Shown here piece after piece: positions 2,100 to 55,600 of a stretch of DNA of 64,000 nucleotides. A program made the translations under genes and the position numbers. Source of the DNA: Lama guanicoe (lineage: Eukaryota); NCBI GenBank assembly GCA_013239625.1, contig MU053810.1, forward strand, positions 6,234,122-6,298,121, read 5' to 3'. The notes under the pieces were generated by a model. That model was not told the origin of the DNA and searched no databases. It worked only from the letters and a program-made list of their open reading frames with translations. Position 1 is the first letter of the stretch. Each line of letters starts with the position of its first letter.

Positions 2100-3210
2100 A
2101 GGATGGGTGAGCTACAGGACACCCACTGATTTTTTTTGCCCATGTCGAAGTCCTTCACAGACTTTCCTGACACTTTCTACCTTTGCCCTGTTTCACAGGG
2201 TGAGCCTGGTCCTGTTCTTTGCCACAAGATTCTAATCAGATTCAGCTGCATTTACCTGGTTTTACCTAACTGCTTTTTTTTGACCTTTCCATTTGAATAT
2301 ATAACAGGTACAAGCTTGATATGGATAAAAAAATTTATTTTCCCTTAAACCAATCCTCCTTCCAGTCTTTCTCATGTCAGTAAAAGGACCGCTCCTCTCC
2401 AGACCTCAGTCCCGAGCCCTGGAGCCACCATTGATTCTCTTTCATTTCTTACCTTCATCTAATGCATTAGCTGTCCTTTGGGCTCTCCTCCCCCAAAATA
2501 CATCCATCTCTTTATCTCTGTCCTCACCTAATTAGTCTAAGCCCCATGAACTATCCCTTGGGCCATTTCAATAACTTCCCAACTGGTCTTGCTCCTTATC
2601 CCCTGCTCCCAATCCATTCTCCACACAGCAGCAAGAATAATTGAAAATAAAATAAAGTAAAGTAAAATAAAATAAAAGCAAATAATATTTACCAGTGCTT
2701 TCCATACACCAGGCACCATTTCTGATTTACAATTAATTATTTCAATACAGTCCTGTGCTATGCTATTGTTATCTTTATTTAATAAATGAAGAAACTAACC
2801 TATGCAGTTGTTAAATAACCTGCCTTCATTCATACATTTAGTAGATGGTAGAAATGGTATTTGAATCTACACTGTCTGATTCTAGAGCTTGGACTATTAA
2901 CCACTATATGTCCTGCTTCCCTGAACATGGCAAATTTGTCATTCCTTGTTACAGAAAATGTAACCTTGCCTTTGTACTTAGGATAAAATTTAAACTCCTT
3001 GACATGACCTCCAAGGCTTTACAAGATCTGATGCCAACTCTACCTCTCCAACCTCATCTCGTAATTGTCTCTCCCCATTGCAAGCTGAGTTCAAGCTATC
3101 CTGGTGTATTCCTCTTTTCCTGAGTATTGAGAAACTCTGAACTGCTTGGAATTCTCACCTCCTGACTCTGCTTGAATGACATCTTCACATCCTTTTGGTC
3201 TCAGCTCAAA
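2100..3210. mobile_element. Degenerate L2 fragments with an embedded MIR (~2690-2905)
   Basis: L2-like ccaatccattctccacacagcagc, aaactccttgacatgacctccaaggc; MIR-like core atgaagaaact...ttaaataacctgcc...atttgaatc. Confidence 0.6.
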
Positions 3211-26856: not shown

Positions 26857-29800
26857 CAGTCCTCAATTCTCTCTTAAATGTTCTGTAATGTTTGTAATTA
26901 TTTTAAAATAACGTCTCTTGTTTTGCCACTTTATTATTTATCATCTGATGTTAATTGAAGACTGTAGGCTCCTGGGACTAGCTAAATCCAAGGACTGGAG
27001 TACAGGTGTGAATGGTGGAGGAGGAGCCTCAAGTTCCACATGCTTCTGGGGCCTTCTGAGGCTCTTGGAGGTCCTGTTTGCATGGCTTTTTAAAGGGCTA
27101 CTTTTATCCTGGACAATATGAGAAGACACTGAAAGGTTGAGCACTGCTCTAAATCATCTAGGACACTGTAGTTCTGTTTTGTGCTACCAGAGTATTGGCT
27201 GCGTTCACATCCTAGCATTGTGCATTTTGACAAGATCTATCTTAGGCTACTTAATTTTCTTATCTTGCCTTTTCACTTCCCTTTTATTTCGGCATTCCTA
27301 AGTTTACTTCCTTTTATTTGTTTTCTATCTACTGGTACCTTCTACTTTATGGATGCATCAACTTCCTTTTCCTTACTATCATTTTCTGTGTGGACTCAAC
27401 TGACTTCTTTACATTGTCAGATATGGTTGTGAAGCCTCTAAATTACCTAAACAGGTCCTCAGAGTGGTTACAAATTTTCCATAAAATTTGACAAATATTT
27501 GGTGACAATATAGTACTTTTTTTTCAGTAACAGATTTTTTTTAATATTTAAAAACAAAATCAACTCCTCCCAGATAGCCCCCCAAACAAACAAAAAATCA
27601 GATTAAATAAAATTTACAGTGAATATACCCAGCAAACATCTGTATGTGCAATTAAATACTGTGTCTGTTTCTGTGGCACAAACCTCAAACAAACAATATA
27701 CAAGTGTTCTGGGGGTGGAGGGAGGCCCAAGTTTTAACTCTGTGGGGCTCGGGGAGACAAAATGGAGTGAGAGAAAGGGGAAATCAATTTCATTTTTCTT
27801 AATTCTGTCCATATAAATATATTCATAAAGACCAAAAAAGAAAGGGGAATTTGGGATGGCAAGGGAATAGGAGAACAGGGGAGTTTGGCTCCCAATTCTA
27901 CCCGACCAAAAATTATGAAAGAAATTAATTTCATGGTGAGAGAAGAAATAAAAAAACAATAGAAGAGAATAGGAAGGAAAAGGAAGCAACGTGGGGCCAA
28001 CCAGGGAAAAAGGGGACCCTTGACAGGGGAGTGAGAGTCCAGTGAGAGAGTCAGTGTCTGTCTGTTTCCATATTCATCCCTACTGTCTTAGGCTTCAGTT
28101 TAGTGTCTGCCACCTTTCTGCCTCTGTGGCCTGGCAGGACCTGCTCCCCCCAGGCCATGCCGGTCCCTTCCCCTCCTCGGTTCATTGGGAGCTGGCTCAC
28201 TCCAAGATCCTCAGGTCATAGTTCTTTTTGGCCACTTGAAGTTTGAAGTGACTCATGGAGTTGTTGAGGAGAAAGGAGGCATTCTGGGCAGCCAGGGGGC
28301 TGGGGAACAGAGCCACGACGTACAAGGCAGCGAGGTCTGCATGACAGCCGTTCTCAGGAGTCCCATCGTTGTCTCCCCCACCCCCACCAGGCAGCCCCTG
28401 AGCGTCCTTGAGCCACCGGATCTTGGCGCTGGACAAGGCAAGCTGAGAAGAGTTTGTTCACCTCGGCATGGGTGATGCCCTCAGGGAGCTGTTACCTCCA
28501 ACACCCACCCCAAGACAACATCTGTCGTCCCCAAGTCAGTGGAGGCAGATTTGAGTGCTGGTCTCTTGCTCCGGTTTCCATGCTTCAATCCACTCTGTCC
28601 CTGGTGCACTGTGTAAGTTGACTGGCCATGGAGCAAGAGAGGGCAGATGGACAGACTGTACTGTAATGGCTGGCCCAAAAGGGAGTAGCGCCCATCACCC
28701 TCTGCTGGACCCCCAGGCCGGGGGAACTGTGTGAGGACAGGAAGGGGACTGAGTCCTGTGCAGACACTGTTGAGGCTGGTGATAGGAGAAGGTGCTGCAG
28801 AGTGGGTGGGAGATGTGACAGGACTACTGCTCATCTGTGTGTTGGCCTGGGGGCTGCTGTCAGGACTGTACAGGTCTCCAGGCTTCTGCCCACACTGGTC
28901 CATGCTGTAATATTTACAGTGACTCCACTGGGCCATGGATGGGTTCTGGGGGGGGGGCTGGGGTCCATTAGGGACATTCAGCTGCATGACCACCAAGCCT
29001 GGTCTAGAAGGTGACACTCCTGAGTACTGCTGTGGCATCTGTGGCGAACTGCAGGGAGAGGGAGACTGAGGCATCTGGTACTGCTCAGAACCAGAAGGCT
29101 GCAGAAACCCCACAGAAGGGCCTGTACCACTCTGCTGAGCTGGTGGGATCATGCTGCAGTGGACGGGTACGCCCCCTGCTGGGAGGCCCCCTTGTGCAGA
29201 TTGGCTTGCTGGGACCAGCGTGGGTTGCTGGAAAGGCAGCTGGACCACGTTTTGTGAATCATTACCCACTGGGACTTGGTAAGAAGGTAGTGGAGTGTAC
29301 TGAACCACCAGGCCTTGCATCTGGCGCCCGATGCTGCTCCTCCAGTTGCTGAGCAGGCCCTGGTTCTGTGGCTGCCGGCCCCCAGTCGTGCCTTGGTAAG
29401 CCACCTGCTGCTGGTTAGGCATCACGGGCTGTAAGCCAGGCTGCTGGATGGCTGAGGTGGCTGTTGACTACGCTGGGGGCTGCAGGCCACCAGGTGAGAG
29501 GCAGATATTGCTGGTTGGAGTTAGGATGCTGTCCAGGGCGATAGTGAGGGACCTGGATCCGCTGAGGGGGCTGCACATAGCCTTGGGGTGGCAGGACTGG
29601 CTGAGTAGCAGATGCATGGCTAGAAGTGGAATAGCCAAAAGTGGGGAGGGGCTGCCCTGTGGAAGCCATGATGAAGCTAGTCTGCTGAGGGTGCTGGGAG
29701 ATAAGTGGGGGCTGAAACAGAGCTGAGGATGGGTCAGCTGCTTCAGCAGACCCTTGGTGGCTAAGGCTCATTTGTCCAAAGGGGTTGCTGAGATCATCTG

Positions 29801-30334
29801 CCTGTGAGATCATGTGATTATTCAAGGGTGGCTGCTGCCGAGGCGTGGGTGGGAGTGCAGGGAGCTGCCGCTGTGCTTGCTGGGCAGTACAAGGGAGAAG
29901 GCCCCAGACAGACTGGGATGAGGTGACCTGGCTGCACACTTCTGGGGCACCAAGTGCCACACCTAGCCTGGAGATCCTTTCTGCACTGCCACCTTTACTG
30001 CTCCCAATGCTACCACCCCAGGTGAGGACAGAGGTTCCACTGAAGCTGCTGGCTTTGGGGACAGGGGGCCGCATGGTTTGGACAGAGCCATCAGAGTCCG
30101 TGCCACTCCAACGCCGAGGCTCCAGGGATTTGAGCTCGCTGTCTGTGCTGCGCTGGCAGCTGCTCGAGGTGTGGCTCAGCCCCTCATGGTTCCCCACGAT
30201 GTCATCTAGGTACCTGTTCTGGCCAGTCTCTAGGGCAAATTCTCTCGGACCCTCTGATATTTCTCCTCTGTCTCTTTTACTGACTTGCTCCTCCGTCCAC
30301 CCTGCAATGGAACTCACATCTGGTTATCATCTCA

Positions 30335-30601
<267 letters not shown>

Positions 30602-30808
30602 CTATTGATTCTTAGAAAAGGATTTACATCGAATGTGCATGGTTCCTCACATATCATCTAAGTTTTAACAATGTTAATAATTTCAAGCTATTTAGGTTTC
30701 CAGGCTCCAGGGTCCCAGGCTCCTGCAGTAAGCACAGAATGTTACATGATCAAGGACAGATTGTTTTTAAGTTCAGTCACAAAACTTAACATTAAGTAGC
30801 CCATTTGT

Positions 30809-30992
30809 ATCCAGCCGGCTGTGCCTGTCTTAGGTTGTCCTCCTCTGAGGATCTTACCCGTCGTTGGCTAGCCAGCCGTCCACACTGGATGCATCGCATC
30901 GCCTAGGCCACCTCGCATCCAGCCGGCTGTGCCTGTCTTAGGTTGTCCTCCTCTGAGGATCTTACCCGTCGTTGGCTAGCCAGCCGTCCACA
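30809..30992 (-). promoter_or_regulatory. 108-bp tandem repeat, each unit carrying a CTE-like (NXF1/TAP-binding) RNA export hairpin; the remainder of the array is at 31940-32023
   Basis: Minus strand reads GGCTGGCT-A-GCC-AACGAC-GGGT-AAGA-TCCTC-AGAG-GAGGA-CA-ACCT-AAGACA-GGC-AC-AGCCGGCT at 30813-30877 and 30921-30985. CCAAxGACGGGTAA and AACCTAAGACAGG are the two conserved arms of the MPMV/SRV CTE internal loop (recalled). Confidence 0.8.
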
Positions 30993-31938
30993 TGTAATGG
31001 CTGCCCAAAAGGGAGTAGCGCCCATCACCCTATGCTGGACCCCCAGGCCGGGGGAACTGTGTGAGGACAGGAAGGGGACTGAGTCCTGTGCAGACACTGT
31101 TGAGGCTGGTGATAGGAGAAGGTGCTGCAGAGTGGGTGGGAGATGTGACAGGACTACTGTTCATCTGTGTGTTGGCCTGGGGGCTGCTGTCAGGACTGTA
31201 CAGGTCTCCAGGCTTCTGCCCACACTGGTCCATGCTGTAATATTTACAGTGACTCCACTGGGCCATGGATGGGTTCTGGGGGGGGGGCTGGGGTCCATTA
31301 GGGACATTCAGCTGCATGACCACCAAGCCTGGTCTAGAAGGTGACACTCCTGAGTACTGCTGTGGCATCTGTGGCGAACTGCAGGGAGAGGGAGACTGAG
31401 GCATCTGGTACTGCTCAGAACCAGAAGGCTGCAGAAACCCCACAGAAGGGCCTGTACCACTCTGCTGAGCTGGTGGGATCATGCTGCAGTGCACGGGTAC
31501 GCCCCCTGCTGGGAGGCCCCCTTGTGCAGATTGGCTTGCTGGGACCAGCGTGGGTTGCTGGAAAGGCAGCTGGACCACGTTTTGTGAATCATTACCCACT
31601 GGGACTTGGTAAGAAGGCAGTGGAGTGTACTGAACCACCAGGCCTTGCATCTGGCGCCCGATGCTGCTCCTCCAGTTGCTGAGCAGGCCCTGGTTCTGTG
31701 GCTGCCAGCCCCCAGTCGTGCCTTGGTAAGCCACCTGCTACTGGTTAGGCATCACGGGCTGTAAGCCAGGCTGCTGGATGGCTGACGTGGCTGTTGACTA
31801 CGCTGGGGGCTGCAGGCCACCAGGTGAGAGGCAGATATTGCTGGTTGGAGTTAGGATGCTGTCCAGGGCAATAGTGAGGGACCTGGATCCGCTGAGGGGG
31901 CTGCACATAGCCTTGGGGTGGCAGGACTGGCTGAGTAG
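30993..31938 (-). repeat. 946-bp duplicate of R3HDM2 pseudogene segment 28662-29608, nested in the LTR
   Basis: Identity at offset 2330; by eye 8 substitutions and one 1-bp deletion. Flanked by a 44-bp direct repeat of LTR sequence (30949-30992 and 31940-31983). Confidence 0.95.
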
Positions 31939-32110
31939 ATCCTCTGAGGATCTTACCCGTCGTTGGCTAGCCAGCCGTCCACACTGGATGCATCGCATCG
32001 CCTAGGCCACCTCGCATCCAGCCAGCTACATGACATTTCTCACAGCTTGTTTATCAATTCATCCAATGGCTTGTTCTCTAGATACTTCAGGCGGGGGCCT
32101 ACAGAGTTCA

Positions 32111-32389
<279 letters not shown>

Positions 32390-32743
32390 TTACATCCTGG
32401 GTTTCTAGTGGTCCATCAGGAAACGGTGCAGAGGACTCCTCACATACTGCACGCTGCCCACCACCTTCAGCTCAGAATCAGACGTGGCTCTTTTCCTGGC
32501 ATGACGACAGTTGTATGTCCGCCTCTGTGCCACCTGACGCAAACTGGTGACTTCACTCTTTCTCGGTTTCTTCCTTGCTTGAAGTCTTAGATATAAACTT
32601 GTCTTTGTTTATAGATTCTTCCACCAGCTTTTTTTTTTTTTTTGATTGTTTCATTATTTCCAGGGTCTCCTGAGTAGTGTTACTGTTAGACGTCGTCTTC
32701 ATAGGACACAGTAGCCTCTACGGACTCTTGAATAAATGTTCAG

Positions 32744-33263
32744 NNNNNNNNNNNNNNNNNNNNNNNNNNNNNNNNNNNNNNNNNNNNNNNNNNNNNNNNN
32801 NNNNNNNNNNNNNNNNNNNNNNNNNNNNNNNNNNNNNNNNNNNNNNNNNNNNNNNNNNNNNNNNNNNNNNNNNNNNNNNNNNNNNNNNNNNNNNNNNNNN
32901 NNNNNNNNNNNNNNNNNNNNNNNNNNNNNNNNNNNNNNNNNNNNNNNNNNNNNNNNNNNNNNNNNNNNNNNNNNNNNNNNNNNNNNNNNNNNNNNNNNNN
33001 NNNNNNNNNNNNNNNNNNNNNNNNNNNNNNNNNNNNNNNNNNNNNNNNNNNNNNNNNNNNNNNNNNNNNNNNNNNNNNNNNNNNNNNNNNNNNNNNNNNN
33101 NNNNNNNNNNNNNNNNNNNNNNNNNNNNNNNNNNNNNNNNNNNNNNNNNNNNNNNNNNNNNNNNNNNNNNNNNNNNNNNNNNNNNNNNNNNNNNNNNNNN
33201 NNNNNNNNNNNNNNNNNNNNNNNNNNNNNNNNNNNNNNNNNNNNNNNNNNNNNNNNNNNNNNN
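32744..33263. other. Assembly gap (520 N) inside the 5'UTR portion of the retrocopy
   Basis: Run of N next to a G-run-rich tract at 33264-33374. Confidence 0.99.
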
Positions 33264-35129
33264 NAGCAGGGGGACTGGGGCGGGGGGATGGGAGGGGCTT
33301 GGGAAGGAGGAGCGAGAGGGGAAGAAAAGGCGGGAAACCAAGCCCGGAAAGGGAGAAAAGCGGGGAGAGGAAGGATATAGTACTAATACCACTATTTTAA
33401 CTACCCACTATGCCCATGCTATTCAGTTAGTGCACTAGGCACCCTCTACTAAGTAGGAAATTTTTGCTTGGTAATTCAACTTACAATTTTAAATTGTATA
33501 ATTATACAACTTTAATATTCAAGTTTACATTAAGAAGTGAGGCTCTTACCCAAACCATTTTTTAAATATGACCAAAAGGCATATGAAAAGTACACACAAT
33601 CCAACGTATTGACATAGCTAATCTCTTGGATTCATTTTTCTATGGGTTTCTTTCTTTTTTTTAAACTGATTTTATCTCAAATTCTTTTTTTTTTTTTTCT
33701 GATTCAGTGAGTTTCTAAGATCAGAGCTCATGCTAGCACATACACACCAATATAGTATCTGTTCTGATAGGCTGGGCTTCCATTCTGAGTGATCAGCACC
33801 CATGCCCTATCTGAGACATTAAATATTTTGATTAATACTTCTGCCTAAGATGTTGTAAACTTGTTCCACACTGGATCCGATGTAGAAATGAAACAGACTA
33901 TGGCACAGTTTCAGCAAGATTTCAGTGGCAGGTGAGTTTCAGGATGAAACACTCCTCCTTCTAAAGAGCTGGTGCCACCTCAGCAGAAGTGCGGGTCATG
34001 GCCACTCACTGCTTCCTGAATTTCTTCATCAGGTCATTTCTCATGCCCGGCCAAGTTTAAAACCCTCCGAATGTGATGCATCAAGTACAGAATCATTTCT
34101 CTATATATTTAAGGCTACTCATGTATATATTAAATATTGGAGAATAGCCCTGCTACAATGCAAATGTAACTTTCACACAGAAAAACTACCGTGAATTTTT
34201 TCTCTCAAGGATTTTCCAAACAATTATATACTTTAAAATGTTCCCATTTTAGAATGCTGTCTTTTTTTTTGTATGATTGAGTTTGACTTTCCATTAAAAA
34301 TTTTCTGCAGTATTTGGAAAAACAGACTTTCCAAGGGTAGTATTATTTCAAATAGTGAATGTGTAAAAGGGAAATATTCTGTGTAACTAAGGAAGTGCAA
34401 TTCCTCTGGCTGGTAGATGTCACTAATATGTCTATGAGGCCGAGGTCTCTGTGTCCGCACTGAAGTTTAGTGAGGTTCTCTTGGAAAACTGGAGCAGAGG
34501 TGTGTAGAGGCCCTGAGTGACCTCGGACACTAGTGCAAGGCCAGTTCATAATATGCTGTAGCAAATCTTACTTCATTTGAAACCATTGTGAGTAGCTCGC
34601 ACTTTCTCATCTATTGTGTTCAAAACCATATACTTGACAATGCTTGCTGCTTGGAAAGCACTGGAGTAAAAACTTTGGTTGTGACAGAAAAGGAAGAGAG
34701 GAGAAAAGAGGAAAACGAAACTGGAATATTTGCTTAGGAACCACTCTGCTTCTTTCTAAATATTGGCTCCTGTTAACGTTGAGAGGAACTGTAGAATCAC
34801 TCCCTGTAAGAGTGTTCCAAATAGATTTTTCTCTGACAACATATCAGATCTTAAGACAGCTAAACATCCTTTCATCAAATGAGAACAGTAAGGAAGCTAT
34901 ATCCATACAAGACGCGCATTTACAGGCCAGATTTACATTTTCTTCTTCTGCATTCAATCCACTGTGATACGTTGTTTTGATTGAAATATGTGAAGAGAGC
35001 CTGACCTCATACATATATGCAATTGGCAAAGGAGTCTTTTAGTAGCTTTTTCACATAAAAGTCAGTTGCAAATGGTGAATCAAAAACCCTATCAATGAAA
35101 TTTTAGTTCTCTGCTACGTTAACATCCAT

Positions 35130-49700: not shown

Positions 49701-50163
49701 TTCTTTTCTAATACTATGAAAAAGGCAAGATTTTTTTTTTTTATCGTCAACGTATATTTTATATTTACTATATCCTTTTCACTGCACCCCGAAGAACCTT
49801 TTATGATTCAGGGGCAATTTGGCACTATTCAACCCTACTACTCTGAAGTGAAAATAAAGTTTGATTTGCACACTATATTAAAAGTAAGGGAAGTATTTGT
49901 AACAATTTTTAAGCTTTTCCTTACTGATTAGAACACAGCCTTTTGTCACTAATTATTAGAGAGGTATTCTAAACTTAAGAAAGGATTTTTAAAAGGAGCA
50001 ATGTTTGGTTTTTTTTTTTTTTTCAATTTTTAAACTGTACTCTACTTTGACACCACAATATAGAAATAGATTTACTCTGGAACAAACTACAAATACATGT
50101 ACACAGTTGGTGACAACTTAATTGTCTACCTAGAGAATTGAAACAGCTTAGTAAGCTAGAATA
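46710..50163 (-). other. GAD2: Probable long GAD2 3'UTR (~3.4 kb)
   Basis: Largely repeat-free sequence after the stop, AU-rich near 49400-50050. Minus-strand AATAAA at 46728-46733 is followed by a GU-rich tract (ctttgtcatgttgtgggg). The length fits the ~5.6 kb brain GAD65 mRNA as I recall it; the 3' end is inferred. Confidence 0.55.
46728..46733 (-). terminator. Candidate distal polyadenylation signal of GAD2
   Basis: tttatt on + (AATAAA on -) with a downstream GU-rich element. Other AATAAA/ATTAAA hexamers occur (e.g. ~46824, 49101, 49619). Confidence 0.5.
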
Positions 50164-50337
50164 TTATAAATCTTGCCCAAGGCGTTCTATTTCTTCAATC
50201 AGGAAGTCAATGTCTTGGTGAGTGGCTGCAGGGTTTGAGATGACCATGCGGAAGAAATTGACCTTATCTCCCAAGGGCTGGTAGCTCACCATTGTGGTCC
50301 CGTACTCCATCATTCTGGCTTTAATCACTGGAGCCAC
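50164..50337 (-). CDS. GAD2: GAD65 terminal coding exon (exon 16), distal copy attached to the full 3'UTR
   Basis: Same 57 aa + TAA and same acceptor as the copy 2272 bp away; runs on into unique AU-rich sequence. Confidence 0.9.
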
Positions 50338-52435
50338 CTGTGGGAGAGACAAGACCAACAAATGGTGACTGTTTCTCTTCCCTCCACCTGAGAACCCAAC
50401 ACCAAGTGGCATTTTTAGTTATTAACTGAACAATCAGAAACATACTTGTTTTCCCTTGAAGGAGTTGCCTCCCGCTTTCTTTGGGATCAGAGGGCTGGAG
50501 TGGTTTAATACGTCCAAGATCTCAAAGGAATAATAAATGGTAAGCTATCACGAGCTTGACACCATATCTTTGACTTTCTACTTTGTGTTTTGGGAGAATG
50601 GGAAGAATCTGATGTTCGTTCCACGGCTAAAGAGTTCAGCAATACAACATTTGGGGGATGCTTTTCCCCCCCTCAGGAAAGGTAAAAACATTGGTCGTAA
50701 GACATAGCTCAGAGAATGGTGACCAAGAGACATAGCCTCACTATGAAGTTATGTATGAAAATAAGCAGATTTTTGAGACCCTAAAGCAGCTTGCTTTCTT
50801 GATACATTTATTTTTTCTAATTTCTTATTCTCCTTTTGCATTCCTTCAGTTTATAAGATGTTTTGAAATATTCTCCCTAATAATGATGAAGAATCAGCTG
50901 AGGCAAAAAGCTGCACCCGCAAGGATTTAACATTATGGAAATCAGATCACAGACAAGATTTTGCCAGACGGATAATTACAGCCCTCGGTCCTCTCTCGTG
51001 TAGGAAATTAAGCCCAAACTCTTTAGTTCAGCACAAATGCCTTTTGTCACCAGCTCTGAGGACTCATCCCCCAGTGCTCACCCAGATGGATCTGCAGCTC
51101 TGACAAGACCTAATTATTCAGTATCCCTTGGGTGTACCGTGCTTGTTTTTATCCCTTCATTCTGGTCCTCAGTCTCAGCATGTCACACTTGTTCTCTTTG
51201 CTTAGGATCCCTTTTCTCTTCCGGTTTGCATCCCACACAGACTCCAAGGCTCCACCACAGTCCTACGCCCACTAGGGAGCCTTTCCTGACTTCTACAGTC
51301 CGTTAGCATATTTTCTCTAGGGTGTAAGTACACAATCCTTATCCACAGATTCTGACTGTATTCTAATTTCCTATAGTCCCTCTCACTTATAAGAAAATAC
51401 ACTTCATCTTTGTACTTCAACTGTAAGCTCCTGGAGGGTAGGGACAGTGTCTTTTACTTCTTTTGTTTGTCAGCACAGCACTGTGTGCACATGGAGGGCT
51501 CCCTGAGTCTTTACTGACTGTAAAGAGTGGCAGAAGAGGACCAGCTCCTAGGATGAGGCATGCATTTAAATTATGTCCACGTGTATGCAGGATCTGTCCA
51601 GTATTTTACCACTGAAGTTTGTAAACATACAATCTGATCTTTTAGGTTCGTTGCTGCAAATACATAACGAGGAATGTAGATGTCAGGGAAGCTTTGGACT
51701 TATGTTAGACATACATAGTCGGCAAGGCAGTTCAGTACGGAAGCGATGCCTTCTATCACAGTTGGATTCATCTTAAATGAAGGATAGATTCAAATGGAAT
51801 GGCATTATGATCATGTGACTTTTGAATATCAACGTTTACATAATCATTGGTTTAATCCTCAAAGTACTCAACGGCAAAACCGACACGGTTCTCACCAGGT
51901 CCTAGTTATTTGTTAGCTACCAAAACCAAAGCCCAAGCCGGACTTTACCTTCATGTTCATTTCACTTTCACTTCACATCCTGAACCTCATTCCCTCATCT
52001 ATACGTGAATGTGGATGGTGATGCCCACATTGGGATGTTCTGATTGCAGGTGAACAAGTTCCTACATCCCTCCCTGCTCCTTCCTTTTCCCACAAGAAGG
52101 TAATGCAAAGAGGAATGCTTCTGTTGGGGTGATCCTTTTCACCCAAAGAGTGAACGATGTACACAGAGCATCAGACTCATCCCAGGGAATGAATATTAAA
52201 AAAAAAATTTTAAGTCTGGAATTAGTTCCTGAAAATGAATCTACTAGAATATATTAGCCTAAGGACATGAGAGGTATCACTTTGTGCTGTGAGTCACATG
52301 GCAAGTCGATCTGTCCCTGGGAAGAGAAATCATAGAAATAGATTTACTCTGGAACAAACTACAAATACATGTACACAGTTGGTGACAACTTAATTGTCTA
52401 CCTAGAGAATTGAAACAGCTTAGTAAGCTAGAATA

Positions 52436-52609
52436 TTATAAATCTTGCCCAAGGCGTTCTATTTCTTCAATCAGGAAGTCAATGTCTTGGTGAGTGGCTG
52501 CAGGGTTTGAGATGACCATGCGGAAGAAATTGACCTTATCTCCCAAGGGCTGGTAGCTCACCATTGTGGTCCCGTACTCCATCATTCTGGCTTTAATCAC
52601 TGGAGCCAC
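52436..52609 (-). CDS. GAD2: GAD65 terminal coding exon (exon 16), proximal copy
   Basis: 174 bp; [61 protein letters not shown], acceptor ctctcccacAG. Only ~104 nt of native 3'UTR follow before the duplication junction at 52331/52332. Confidence 0.9.
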
Positions 52610-55600
52610 CTGTGGGAGAGACAAGACCAACAAATGGTGACTGTTTCTCTTCCCTCCACCTGAGAACCCAACACCAAGTGGCATTTTTAGTTATTAACTG
52701 AACAATCAGAAACATACTTGTTTTCCCTTGAAGGAGTTGCCTCCCGCTTTCTTTGGGATCAGAGGGCTGGAGTGGTTTAATACGTCCAAGATCTCAAAGG
52801 AATAATAAATGGTAAGCTATCACGAGCTTGACACCATATCTTTGACTTTCTACTTTGTGTTTTGGGAGAATGGGAAGAATCTGATGTTCGTTCCACGGCT
52901 AAAGAGTTCAGCAATACAACATTTGGGGGATGCTTTTCCCCCCCTCAGGAAAGGTAAAAACATTGGTCGTAAGACATAGCTCAGAGAATGGTGACCAAGA
53001 GACATAGCCTCACTATGAAGTTATGTATGAAAATAAGCAGATTTTTGAGACCCTAAAGCAGCTTGCTTTCTTGATACATTTATTTTTTCTAATTTCTTAT
53101 TCTCCTTTTGCATTCCTTCAGTTTATAAGATGTTTTGAAATATTCTCCCTAATAATGATGAAGAATCAGCTGAGGCAAAAAGCTGCACCCACAAGGATTT
53201 AACATTATGGAAATCAGATCACAGACAAGATTTTGCCAGACGGATAATTACAGCCCTCGGTCCTCTCTCGTGTAGGAAATTAAGCCCAAACTCTTTAGTT
53301 CAGCACAAATGCCTTTTGTCACCAGCTCTGAGGACTCATCCCCCAGTGCTCACCCAGATGGATCTGCAGCTCTGACAAGACCTAATTATTCAGTATCCCT
53401 TGGGTGTACCGTGCTTGTTTTTATCCCTTCATTCTGGTCCTCAGTCTCAGCATGTCACACTTGTTCTCTTTGCTTAGGATCCCTTTTCTCTTCCGGTTTG
53501 CATCCCACACAGACTCCAAGGCTCCACCACAGTCCTACGCCCACTAGGGAGCCTTTCCTGACTTCTACAGTCCGTTAGCATATTTTCTCTAGGGTGTAAG
53601 TACACAATCCTTATCCACAGATTCTGACTGTATTCTAATTTCCTATAGTCCCTCTCACTTATAAGAAAATACACTTCATCTTTGTACTTCAACTGTAAGC
53701 TCCTGGAGGGTAGGGACAGTGTCTTTTACTTCTTTTGTTTGTCAGCACAGCACTGTGTGCACATGGAGGGCTCCCTGAGTCTTTACTGACTGTAAAGAGT
53801 GGCAGAAGAGGACCAGCTCCTAGGATAAGGCATGCATTTAAATTATGTCCACGTGTATGCAGGATCTGTCCAGTATTTTACCACTGAAGTTTGTAAACAT
53901 ACAATCTGATCTTTTAGGTTCGTTGCTGCAAATACATAACGAGGAATGTAGATGTCAGGGAAGCTTTGGACTTATGTTAGACATACATAGTCGGCAAGGC
54001 AGTTCAGTACGGAAGCGATGCCTTCTATCACAGTTGGATTCATCTTAAATGAAGGATAGATTCAAATGGAATGGCATTATGATCATGTGACTTTTGAATA
54101 TCAACGTTTACATAATCATTGGTTTAATCCTCAAAGTACTCAACGGCAAAATCGACACGGTTCTCACCAGGCCCTAGTTATTTGTTAGCTACCAAAACCA
54201 AAGCCCAAGCCGGACTTTACCTTCATGTTCATTTCACTTTCACTTCACATCCTGAACCTCATTCCCTCATCTATACGTGAATGTGGATGGTGATGCCCAC
54301 ATTGGGATGTTCTGATTGCAGATGAACAAGTTTCTACATACCTCCCTGCTCCTTCCTTTTCCCACAAGGAGGTAATGCAAAGAGGAATGCTTCTGTTGGG
54401 GTGATCCTTTTTCACCCAAAGAGTGAACGATGTACACAGAGCATCAGGCTCATCCCAGGGAATGAATATTAAAAAAAAAATTTTTAAGTCTGGAATTAGT
54501 TCCTGAAAATGAATCTACTAGAATATATTAGCCTAAGGACATGAGAGGTATCACTTTGTGCTGTGAGTCACATGGCAAGTCGATCTGTCCCTGGGAAGAG
54601 AAATCCCAGGTTAGAAAAGGAGTTCCAAGTCCATGTGTCTGCAGGAACTGAAGGAAAAAATCATTTGTGCAAAAATCATGCTTGTTCTTTAGCACTGATA
54701 AAACGATGATAATGCTTTACTCAGTGAATTAAACTCTGATTTCATTTTCATGGGCAATGCAAATAAGAATACATAGGAATGGGTTAATTATTAAGGACGA
54801 TCAAGTCAAATTTTTCAAATACATGCAAATCAGAGGTCAAAAGACTAATGGTAACAGTCAGTATCCCAAACAGATTTTGGCATAAAGTTAAGACTGAAAC
54901 CCCCCAGTTCCTGAAGCTGGGTTGGCAGAAATCACAGCTGTCTAAATACATATGACTTTTGGTTGCTTCCAGAAAATGCTGATGAACTAAAATTAGCAGG
55001 AATATGGAACATCTACTTCATTGCATAATCACTAATTGCAAGTGAAGAAGGAAAATAAGATTCTGACTATTCTGATGAATATACAGCATTTTTTATTTTG
55101 ACTTTGTTCTAGACTTTTTTTTTTTGGTCACATTCTTGGTTTTGCTGAATAAACAAAGTTAGGAAAAGAGGGGCCGCATGTTGAAGAATTCATAAAAGGC
55201 TTAATTAACAAGAGCTGTTTGGAGATGCCTCAAGAGTTTTAGGGTATCATTTTCTGCCTTCTGCCATTAGCTTTTTCAATCTTTTAGAAAACAGTAACCA
55301 GGGAATGCTTCCATAATTTAAATCCACATTTGTGTCCTCCAACGAGGCCTCAGATTAAAGTATTATAAAATAAACTTATGAGATGTTACAGAGACATATT
55401 TTTCACTATGTATTAACAAACATTTTTGTTTTTAAATCTTGGAAGCTTGAGAGGAATTTTGAAAAATTAAAAAGCAGAATAACCATAGGTAAGATATTTG
55501 AAAACATTAAAATATCACCAATTAAGTTCCCCATTACATTGAATAACCGAGACTTGAAAAGAGTCAGATATGAGGCCAGTCTACTTCCTTACTAATGTAC

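Follow-up and report, generated by a model that had tools for sequence, protein, structure and literature searches.

What is a repeated hairpin of the kind that exports retroviral RNA doing in a long terminal repeat (LTR) of Lama guanicoe, and where did it come from? The question is raised by a 64,000-nt stretch of contig MU053810.1 (here called the window; all coordinates are window positions unless a contig or a provirus is named), whose minus strand carries, in a solo LTR, tandem copies of a hairpin of the constitutive transport element (CTE) type. CTEs are the classic RNAs that recruit the cellular mRNA export receptor directly, and few natural examples are known: those of simian type-D retroviruses, those in NXF gene introns, and reports at the motif level from bat endogenous retroviruses (ERVs). 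We directly observe arm sequence identity, a structure with compensatory changes, an LTR of an ERV as the context and a position in U3. From these sequence data we conclude that the window contains a decayed solo LTR and that the hairpin probably served its ERV as a cis-acting recruitment site for NXF1:NXT1, located in the 3' U3 of all viral RNAs.

Two complete CTE-type hairpins and one half in the window LTR

Positions 30809-30884 are identical to 30917-30992 (76/76), and 30841-30928 match 31940-32027 at 87 of 88 positions, in both cases with a period of 108 bp. This bears out a preliminary description of the locus, which had placed about two occurrences of a 108-bp unit at 30809-30992, completed at 31940-32023. 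Read on the minus strand, the array starts with the truncated unit 1 (31940-32027; 99% identical to 30841-30928), which consists of the spacer and the 5' half of the hairpin with the 5' arm CCAACGACGGGTAA, and which stops within the apical stem. Two complete units are found further downstream, unit 2 (30917-30992; hairpin core 30985-30921) and the 100% identical unit 3 (30809-30884; core 30877-30813), each with exact copies of both arms, CCAACGACGGGTAA and AACCTAAGACAGG. The spacer between them (30885-30916) is the same as that upstream of unit 1. The locus content is two complete hairpins and one 5' half; the earlier statement that each unit has both arms holds for the two complete units but not for the repeat at 31940-32027, in which only the 5' arm and one half of the apical stem remain. 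A covariance model built from genomic copies scored 107.1 bits for unit 3, 102.5 bits (E = 7.8e-31) for unit 2 and 36.6 bits for the truncated unit 1. Tandem Repeats Finder did not report the window array, because fewer than two contiguous full copies remain.

The minimum-free-energy (MFE) fold of the window copy consists of 65-nt hairpins at 30877-30813 and 30985-30921, as had been proposed, and a 100-nt single unit folds with -38.8 kcal/mol (z = -4.0; none of 200 shuffles was as good). The hairpin contains an asymmetric internal loop with AAYGAC on the 5' side and AAGACA on the 3' side, flanked by the helices GCC/GGC and GGGU/ACCU. A pattern comprising the two arms matched 169 sites in the 2.05-Gb genome (106 forward and 63 reverse), whereas the same pattern read backwards matched none. 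The window hairpin is therefore more than a chance resemblance. The matches fall in two LTR families, and the window LTR belongs to family 1.

The hairpin structure is kept by compensatory changes

For structural comparison, we aligned 39 copies, namely the window copy, 19 more family-1 copies selected for their BLAST matches to the unit, and 19 family-2 rows picked by the exact pattern, a choice that in itself makes their arms invariant; five rows that were duplicates or contained N were left out. The GCC/GGC and GGGU/ACCU helices were paired in 97-100% of the cells. For the conserved register as a whole (GGCUG/CAGCC, GCC/GGC, GGGU/ACCU and the apical stem), 98.0% of 659 cells were paired, as compared to at most 54.5% for sliding partners in the same alignment. 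The 8-bp basal stem of the preliminary description proved to be specific to the window copy: it is 93.5% paired overall, and two of its pairs are broken in 19 of the 39 copies.

Three pairs change on both sides across the 39 copies. One apical pair changes from U-A (20 rows) to C-G (18 rows), and a second one occurs as U-A, U-G or C-G; the apical stem reads UCCUC/GAGGA in family 1 and UCCCC/GGGGG in family 2. Two further compensated pairs are found in the outer stem (AUCCAG/CUGGAU in family 1 and ACUCAG/CUGAGU in family 2). The compensatory changes break no helix. A check for covariation across genomic copies, which the preliminary description had suggested, thus found loop and stems kept and compensatory changes in the 39 copies, and these sequences indicate that the hairpin structure was maintained by compensatory change, in few independent events.

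One loop is present in single-unit LTRs, the usual form in the family. For a 208-nt RNA comprising units 2 and 3, the predicted MFE structure is one long hairpin with two internal loops, each formed by the 5' arm of one unit and the 3' arm of the other; L054, a viral record described below, also folds with two internal loops. The predicted energy of this inter-unit hairpin is -86.3 kcal/mol, compared to -79.6 kcal/mol for two local hairpins, with an inter-unit pair probability of 0.95; either predicted fold shows two loops. Two adjacent units, if transcribed, are thus predicted to pair into a two-loop hairpin, which is the architecture of the simian type-D CTE.

The loop arms are identical to those of viral CTE records

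An IMG/VR scan with both arms (21 specified bases) returned four loci, L051 to L054. L054 is from a record of 8557 nt and L053 from one of 8126 nt. Both records encode an integrase and a TLV_coat env, and in both, two copies of the motif pair lie immediately behind the env stop codon, ahead of the polypurine tract (PPT) and the LTR, a layout which we take to be that of Mason-Pfizer monkey virus and simian retrovirus (MPMV/SRV). The elements GACGGGTAA and ACCTAAGACAGG are invariant in the window units, in the two halves each of L054 and L053 and in a host NXF1-like element (see the next section). Furthermore, the 5' strand GACGGGUAA and the 3' strand ACCUAAGACAGG are present in the window units, in the L054 and L053 halves and in the host NXF1-like intron, and in the MFE folds the arms are opposed across the asymmetric internal loop, with helices closing both sides. 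The claim that the arms align to the CTE loop was thereby confirmed, since they are identical to both CTE halves of the two retroviral records. The apical stems of the window units and of the four viral halves are unrelated. With the covariance model, L053 and L054 were matched at E = 5e-5 to 1e-3.

The remaining two loci, L051 and L052, are phage contigs (portal protein, methyltransferase). They match the 21-base pattern exactly, together with four flanking bases; the match at 3001-3056 is inside an open reading frame (ORF), and the covariance model gave no match. They were rejected as chance matches.

The closest relative found is a host NXF1-like intronic element

A cellular CTE was reportedly described in an NXF1 intron by Li et al. 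in 2006. In the L. guanicoe genome, the best Tap-RNA_bind match (C7465:4111681-4111991, minus strand) and the best NXF_NTF2 match (C7465:4107776-4108087, minus strand) are on the same contig. The pattern search found a hairpin with both arms at C7465:4109718-4109755 on the same strand, between the Tap-RNA_bind exons and the start of NXF_NTF2. A search for the TAP_C family on this NXF1-like contig gave no match. The 161 nt around the host hairpin (L075) adopt a single-loop fold with the helices GGCUG/CAGUC, GCC/GGC and GGGU/ACCU plus an apical stem. The host hairpin, here called an NXF1-like intronic element, fits the published NXF1 intron-10 CTE (PMC4338338).

Over the 63-nt core, the ERV copies are 78-79% identical to the host element but only 56-59% identical to the L054 halves, and the host element and the L054 halves share 57% identity. 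The ERV hairpin and the NXF1-intron CTE have in common the single loop, an identical 3' arm, the motif GGGUAAGA and the helix register. In family 2 and the host element, the blocks GGCTGGTTAGCCA and CAACCTAAGACAGGCACAG are letter-identical, and the two also share GGCUGGUUAGCC as basal block and CAACCUAAGACAGGCACAG as 3' block. The two elements differ in their apical and outer stems and in the 5' loop strand, which in the ERVs is AAYGAC, as in the simian virus, or AGTGAC (AATGAC in L054). They also differ in their genomic setting: the ERV version is LTR-borne, with hundreds of dispersed copies, whereas the NXF1 version is found in one conserved intron. Judged by these sequences, the closest relative found for the ERV hairpin is the host NXF1-like intronic element and not the simian CTE, and the ERV element can be described as a cellular-type single-loop CTE with a virus-type 5' strand.

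At C5323:390071-390110 (plus strand), a 40-nt hairpin core is letter-identical to the host NXF1-like element. The contig has no Tap-RNA_bind match, and this copy may have arisen by partial duplication or by retrocopying of an NXF1 transcript that had kept its intron. Tap-RNA_bind and NXF_NTF2 matches also mark further NXF-like loci, some with in-frame stops, on C7048, C9228, C7944, C54755, C903 and C11659; they are probably NXF paralogues or pseudogenes.

The hairpin is located in the U3 region of betaretrovirus-like LTRs

According to a MAFFT comparison, the two LTR families are 87% identical at LTR positions 121-180 and 14-53% identical elsewhere (shuffled control, mean 27% and maximum 32%). 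By BLAST, only the hairpin and the last ~60 nt of U5 align between them, and the hairpin cores are 93% identical over 63 nt. Family 1 is represented by a provirus, L031, with one hairpin unit in each LTR. It has the PPT AAAAAGGGGGGA directly before the 3' LTR, the primer-binding site (PBS) TGGTGACCCCGACGTGAT directly after the 5' LTR (4022-4040 of L031) and TCTAG at both outer ends. Its ORFs matched the Pfam families dUTPase, RVP, RVT_1, RVT_thumb and GP41 (PF00517), and the nearest named protein is an ERV-K-group Pol with 44% identity. The two LTRs are 95.0% identical to each other (23 mismatches in 461 aligned positions). The PBS is presumably complementary to tRNA-Trp. Most betaretroviruses use tRNA-Lys, and tRNA-Trp would be unusual. 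At another locus (L047), the LTR is followed by GATGGTGA.

In the L031 LTRs, the TATA box TATATAAA and the poly(A) signal AATAAA are ~370-390 nt into the LTR, downstream of the hairpin. The hairpin itself is at LTR positions ~120-190, and thus in U3, as the preliminary description had proposed, downstream of the PPT and upstream of both signals. That description had also assigned the LTR to a betaretrovirus-like ERV. Indeed, the provirus with the same LTRs has PPT, PBS, matching 5-bp flanks, dUTPase and protease, reverse transcriptase, and a GP41-type transmembrane protein (TM), and on this sequence evidence we assign the LTR family to class II, betaretrovirus-like ERVs. Exact 5-bp target duplications were found in 8 of the 11 full-length LTR rows that have host flanks on both sides (15 rows listed). 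These 8 rows represent 7 independent insertions, because L033 and L034 are one duplicated segment.

The comparison with the MPMV/SRV CTE (as represented by L054 and L053) shows both common and different features. The arms agree completely, and many ERV copies share CCAAUGAC as well; both elements are in the 3' untranslated part of all viral RNAs, and the MPMV/SRV CTE, too, is built from a one-loop unit that is directly repeated in degenerate form. However, the MPMV/SRV CTE is positioned between env and PPT, outside the LTR, a position that the L031 hairpin does not share: the ERV hairpin is inside U3, after the PPT. Moreover, the MPMV/SRV CTE has two loops in one long stem, in contrast to one loop per unit in the ERV, and it accompanies a gamma-type env (TLV_coat), in contrast to the GP41-type TM of L031. 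When the L031 ORFs were compared to L053 and L054 by tblastn, no matches were obtained, because these loci contain only the integrase and a different env type.

Among the ORFs in family-2 flanks, 1 of 70 matched Pfam (RVT_1, from a long interspersed nuclear element [LINE] or an ERV), and no family-2 provirus was identified among them. The L055 LTR pair does not enclose ERV ORFs. L033 and L034 (C2563, 11.98 Mb and 11.70 Mb) have identical LTRs with identical flanks, and L032 (C7146) has two copies 2.2 kb apart with the same LINE-like ORFs in their flanks. By their sequences, these pairs are segmental duplications and not proviral LTR pairs.

Tandem arrays occur at several loci and differ from each other

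Most LTRs of the families contain one hairpin, flanked by imperfect ~32-nt direct repeats. Multi-unit LTRs were found at at least 10 loci, with 2-20 units and periods of 99, 103/104 and 108 nt. The array at 13.5 Mb of C2563 consists of 19-20 units with a 99-nt period, its adjacent units are 100% identical, and LTR sequence is present on both of its sides. A second array on the same contig (15.5 Mb) has 16 units with a 104-nt period and 84-100% identity, and the array on C7565 has 5 units. On C8976, ~18 units are arranged as a 206-bp dimer; the arms are mutated in most of them (AAGCCA; GGGAACGA) and exact in only 2. No array shared by both LTRs of a provirus or by independent insertions was found, with one provirus in the sample and with arrays that differ in period and unit sequence. 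The preliminary description had proposed CTEs multimerised in U3. This is true for the window LTR, which has an array, but it is not the norm of the family, since most copies, including both L031 LTRs, have a single unit. Because the periods differ, units are near-identical in old LTRs, defective units were amplified and the provirus LTRs are single-unit, the arrays appear to have expanded independently of each other, at the DNA level and after integration.

Units 2 and 3 of the window LTR have 0 differences over 76 nt, although this LTR lacks intact promoter and poly(A) signals, a pattern consistent with recent duplication or gene conversion. The tandem duplication of the unit at this locus would have followed integration, and the ~32-nt direct repeats that flank the hairpin in single-unit LTRs could mediate such a process; a 947-bp templated copy of DNA lying 1.4-2.3 kb downstream would later have interrupted the array. 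The duplication (or conversion) of the unit may be about as old as this insert, which is 1% diverged from its source.

The window LTR and its insertion site

The solo LTR extends from 32103 to 30542 on the minus strand, starts with TGTAGGCC and ends with CCGACA. Its ends were set by BLAST of both halves against 20 other genomic copies, and TG...CA termini are present in its relatives and in the window LTR itself. With the 947-bp foreign insert it comprises 1562 bp, and without it 615 bp, a length that replaces the ~571 bp reconstructed earlier; its single-unit relatives have 445-461 bp. The 5' end of U3, upstream of the repeat units (32028-32103), aligns to LTR positions 1-76 of the relatives. 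The window LTR is 85% identical to the L031 3' LTR. In its part downstream of the units, with the remainder of U3 followed by R and U5 (30542-30808), the TATA box has decayed to GATGTAAA (30630-30623) and the poly(A) signal to AATAGA (30606-30601), whereas the L031 3' LTR has retained both signals. The target-site duplicates, as read in the sequence on the minus strand, are AACTC upstream (32104-32108) and AGCTC downstream (30537-30541), equal at 4 of 5 positions.

The insert (30993-31939, minus strand) is not LTR sequence but a duplicate of 28662-29608, with 99.05% identity over 947 bp. The two copies differ at ~1% of positions, one indel included. The insert replaced ~63 nt of the array, comprising the 3' half of the first hairpin and the spacer, and imperfect microhomology of 2-4 nt is present at both junctions. 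The source copy (28662-29608, minus strand) belongs to the Q/P-rich region of an R3HDM2 processed pseudogene, which is intronless and has a broken reading frame. The downstream part of the pseudogene is at 28481-30541 and the upstream part, an ORF with the putative start of the R3H domain, at 32104-32389, both on the minus strand and contiguous with each other across the LTR insertion point. For an ORF of 302 aa in the downstream part, the identity with R3HDM2 proteins from numerous mammals is 68-78% (lowest E = 6.5e-121). We read 32104-32389 as corresponding to the R3H region; a Pfam scan gave no match for the split R3H domain. According to these sequences, the LTR inserted into the R3HDM2 processed pseudogene on the same strand. 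Elsewhere in the window, a tandem duplication of ~2.28 kb was observed (50057-52331 and 52328-54605, 99.5% identical).

A probable NXF1:NXT1 recruitment site and its alternatives

The following role of the hairpin can be proposed. Since the U3 of the 3' LTR is part of every viral transcript, the hairpin would be in the 3' untranslated region, where its asymmetric loop would recruit NXF1:NXT1 directly. Unspliced genomic and gag-pol RNA could then leave the nucleus without a viral Rev-like protein. Because the element is located after and not before the PPT, every LTR, solo LTRs included, keeps a copy. Each lobe of a CTE binds NXF1:NXT1 independently, and NXF1:NXT1 forms a symmetric dimer platform (PMC4330390). 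According to Wang, Rekosh and Hammarskjold (2015), a single-loop NXF1 CTE reaches high reporter activity only when present as a 2x tandem (PMC4338338). The window copy itself is most simply regarded as a fossil that is probably inactive today; RNA runs contain only 0.05-0.07 of the window's sampled words, and we draw no conclusion on expression from them.

Several points weigh against this proposal. NXF1 binding and export function are what we infer from sequence and predicted fold, as are, from the sequence, the timing of the duplication and the present inactivity. An Rfam scan of 28000-35000 with E up to 10 returned no CTE-like family, its sole match being a chance long noncoding RNA. The covariation comes from few independent events, essentially one split between family 1 and family 2 plus the comparison of host and simian elements. 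Furthermore, the family-2 rows and the IMG/VR loci were picked by exact arms, so that the invariance of the arms in them and the model matches on L053 and L054 are partly circular. The 5' loop strand is AAYGAC in the ERVs but AGAGAC in the host element, and the U3/R border is placed from the positions of the TATA box and AATAAA. The sample of proviruses is n = 1, deleted and without gag, and the ERV may therefore have possessed a Rev-like factor. Finally, the copies decay once integrated. In family 1 the arms are exact in 13 of 20 rows, and in the other 7 they differ by 1-3 substitutions, for the most part CpG-type changes. A probe free of the hairpin yielded 40 LTRs, of which 17 had exact arms, 18 did not and 5 were not scorable; the split of 17 to 18 is as expected for neutral decay and gives no sign of selection in the host.

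Retroviral enhancer repeats sit in U3 upstream of the TATA box, and the repeated unit has just this position and is recurrently duplicated. That it is a DNA-level enhancer repeat, with the CTE resemblance being irrelevant to its retention or duplication, nevertheless seems very improbable to us: between the two LTR families, base pairs of the apical stem and of the outer stem are kept by compensatory changes and U3 is otherwise not conserved, and the arms are identical to those of RNA elements outside promoters, namely downstream of env in the simian records and in the host NXF1-like intron. A different RNA function of the hairpin in the virus, for example as a stability element or as a U1 small nuclear ribonucleoprotein-binding or cryptic 5' splice-site element (GGGUAAGA), could be suspected from the 5' splice-site-like GGTAAG within the 5' arm. 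However, the 3' arm AAGACA and the loop helices are as strictly conserved as GGUAAG, and a splice-site element alone would not need such conservation, which leaves little probability for this explanation.

Two other explanations concern the array rather than the hairpin. A replicating virus might have used multimerised U3 CTEs to load more NXF1, so that the LTR integrated with the array already present. In favor of such a viral adaptation, two loops are far better than one in reporters (PMC4338338), NXF1:NXT1 is a symmetric dimer platform (PMC4330390), multi-unit LTRs recur at the at least 10 loci mentioned above, and two units are predicted to give a two-loop hairpin like that of the simian CTE. 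We consider it unlikely nonetheless, given the single unit in both LTRs of one provirus and in most solo LTRs, the different periods (99, 103/104 and 108) with no array structure seen in common between two loci, the identity of up to 100% among units within arrays while the carrier LTRs are old, and the amplification of a 206-bp dimer with mutated arms on C8976. Nor do we give much weight to the idea that the interrupted array is an assembly artefact, in which a chimeric join or a collapsed repeat put pseudogene DNA inside the LTR. An assembly gap of 521 N is indeed ~700 bp from the LTR (~32745-33265), and the window contains the other near-identical duplication of 2.28 kb. But the ~1% difference and the indel between the 947-bp copies show that one sequence was not used twice, and both junctions have short microhomology, as in real templated insertions. 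Fourteen DNA-type runs from four organisms contain 56-66% of the window's sampled words, a result that has no bearing on the junctions themselves. A decayed solo LTR whose hairpin was an NXF1:NXT1 recruitment site, with the array formed after integration, remains the explanation that we favor.

Relation to known export elements and significance

The RNA transport element (RTE) of intracisternal A-particles and the MusD transport element, both of which PMC11379458 and PMC1363727 cite, also act in cis in endogenous class II retroelements and direct export into the NXF1 pathway. Neither is related to the CTE by sequence or by structure, and the RTE is reported to act via RBM15 and not by direct NXF1 binding. 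Bat group VII endogenous betaretroviruses (Hayward et al. 2013, PMC3621094) are, like the ERVs described here, nonprimate ERVs with CTE-type Tap-binding motifs, but the motif search behind that report covered sequence "within and downstream of env". In its available text, this paper makes no mention of a U3 location, tandem arrays or a comparison to host NXF1. The MER11 CTE of SERV-K/MER11, of HML-8 LTR origin (eLife 2024, PMC11379458), is likewise an LTR-derived, Rec-independent export element of a betaretrovirus-like ERV; in contrast to the present hairpin, it is ~1 kb long and without NXF1-binding loop motifs, and its export pathway is given as unknown. In the literature as far as its text was available, we found no description of an MPMV- or NXF1-type CTE inside U3, of tandem CTE arrays in LTRs, or of an ERV element that resembles the host NXF1 CTE more than its simian counterpart. 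Dfam or Repbase may already have an entry for the LTR family as such.

How the hairpin entered U3 can be suggested only tentatively. A betaretrovirus-like lineage possibly captured the host NXF1-intron CTE, for example from an intron-retaining NXF1 mRNA; the ERV family would then represent a single-loop intermediate that preceded the two-loop type-D CTEs, which would have arisen from it by tandem duplication, and would have left a genome with well over 100 dispersed NXF1-binding hairpins. The step from one loop to two by tandem duplication is visible repeatedly in the LTRs of these families. If this scenario is true, sense-oriented hairpins in introns or untranslated regions could license the export of intron-retaining host transcripts.

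To the few natural CTEs, these data add a cellular-type single-loop CTE inside U3, which is retained by every solo LTR. Whether the type-D CTE was acquired together with the gamma-type env is an open question in PMC3621094 and PMC11379458. The presence of a homologous element in a provirus with a GP41-type TM argues that CTE use is independent of the gamma-type env. The ERV hairpins also qualify the statement of Wang et al. (2015; PMC4338338) that BLAST gave no CTE other than those in NXF genes. Should the hairpins bind NXF1, their LTR-borne copies in genes would be candidates for licensing the export of retained-intron transcripts.

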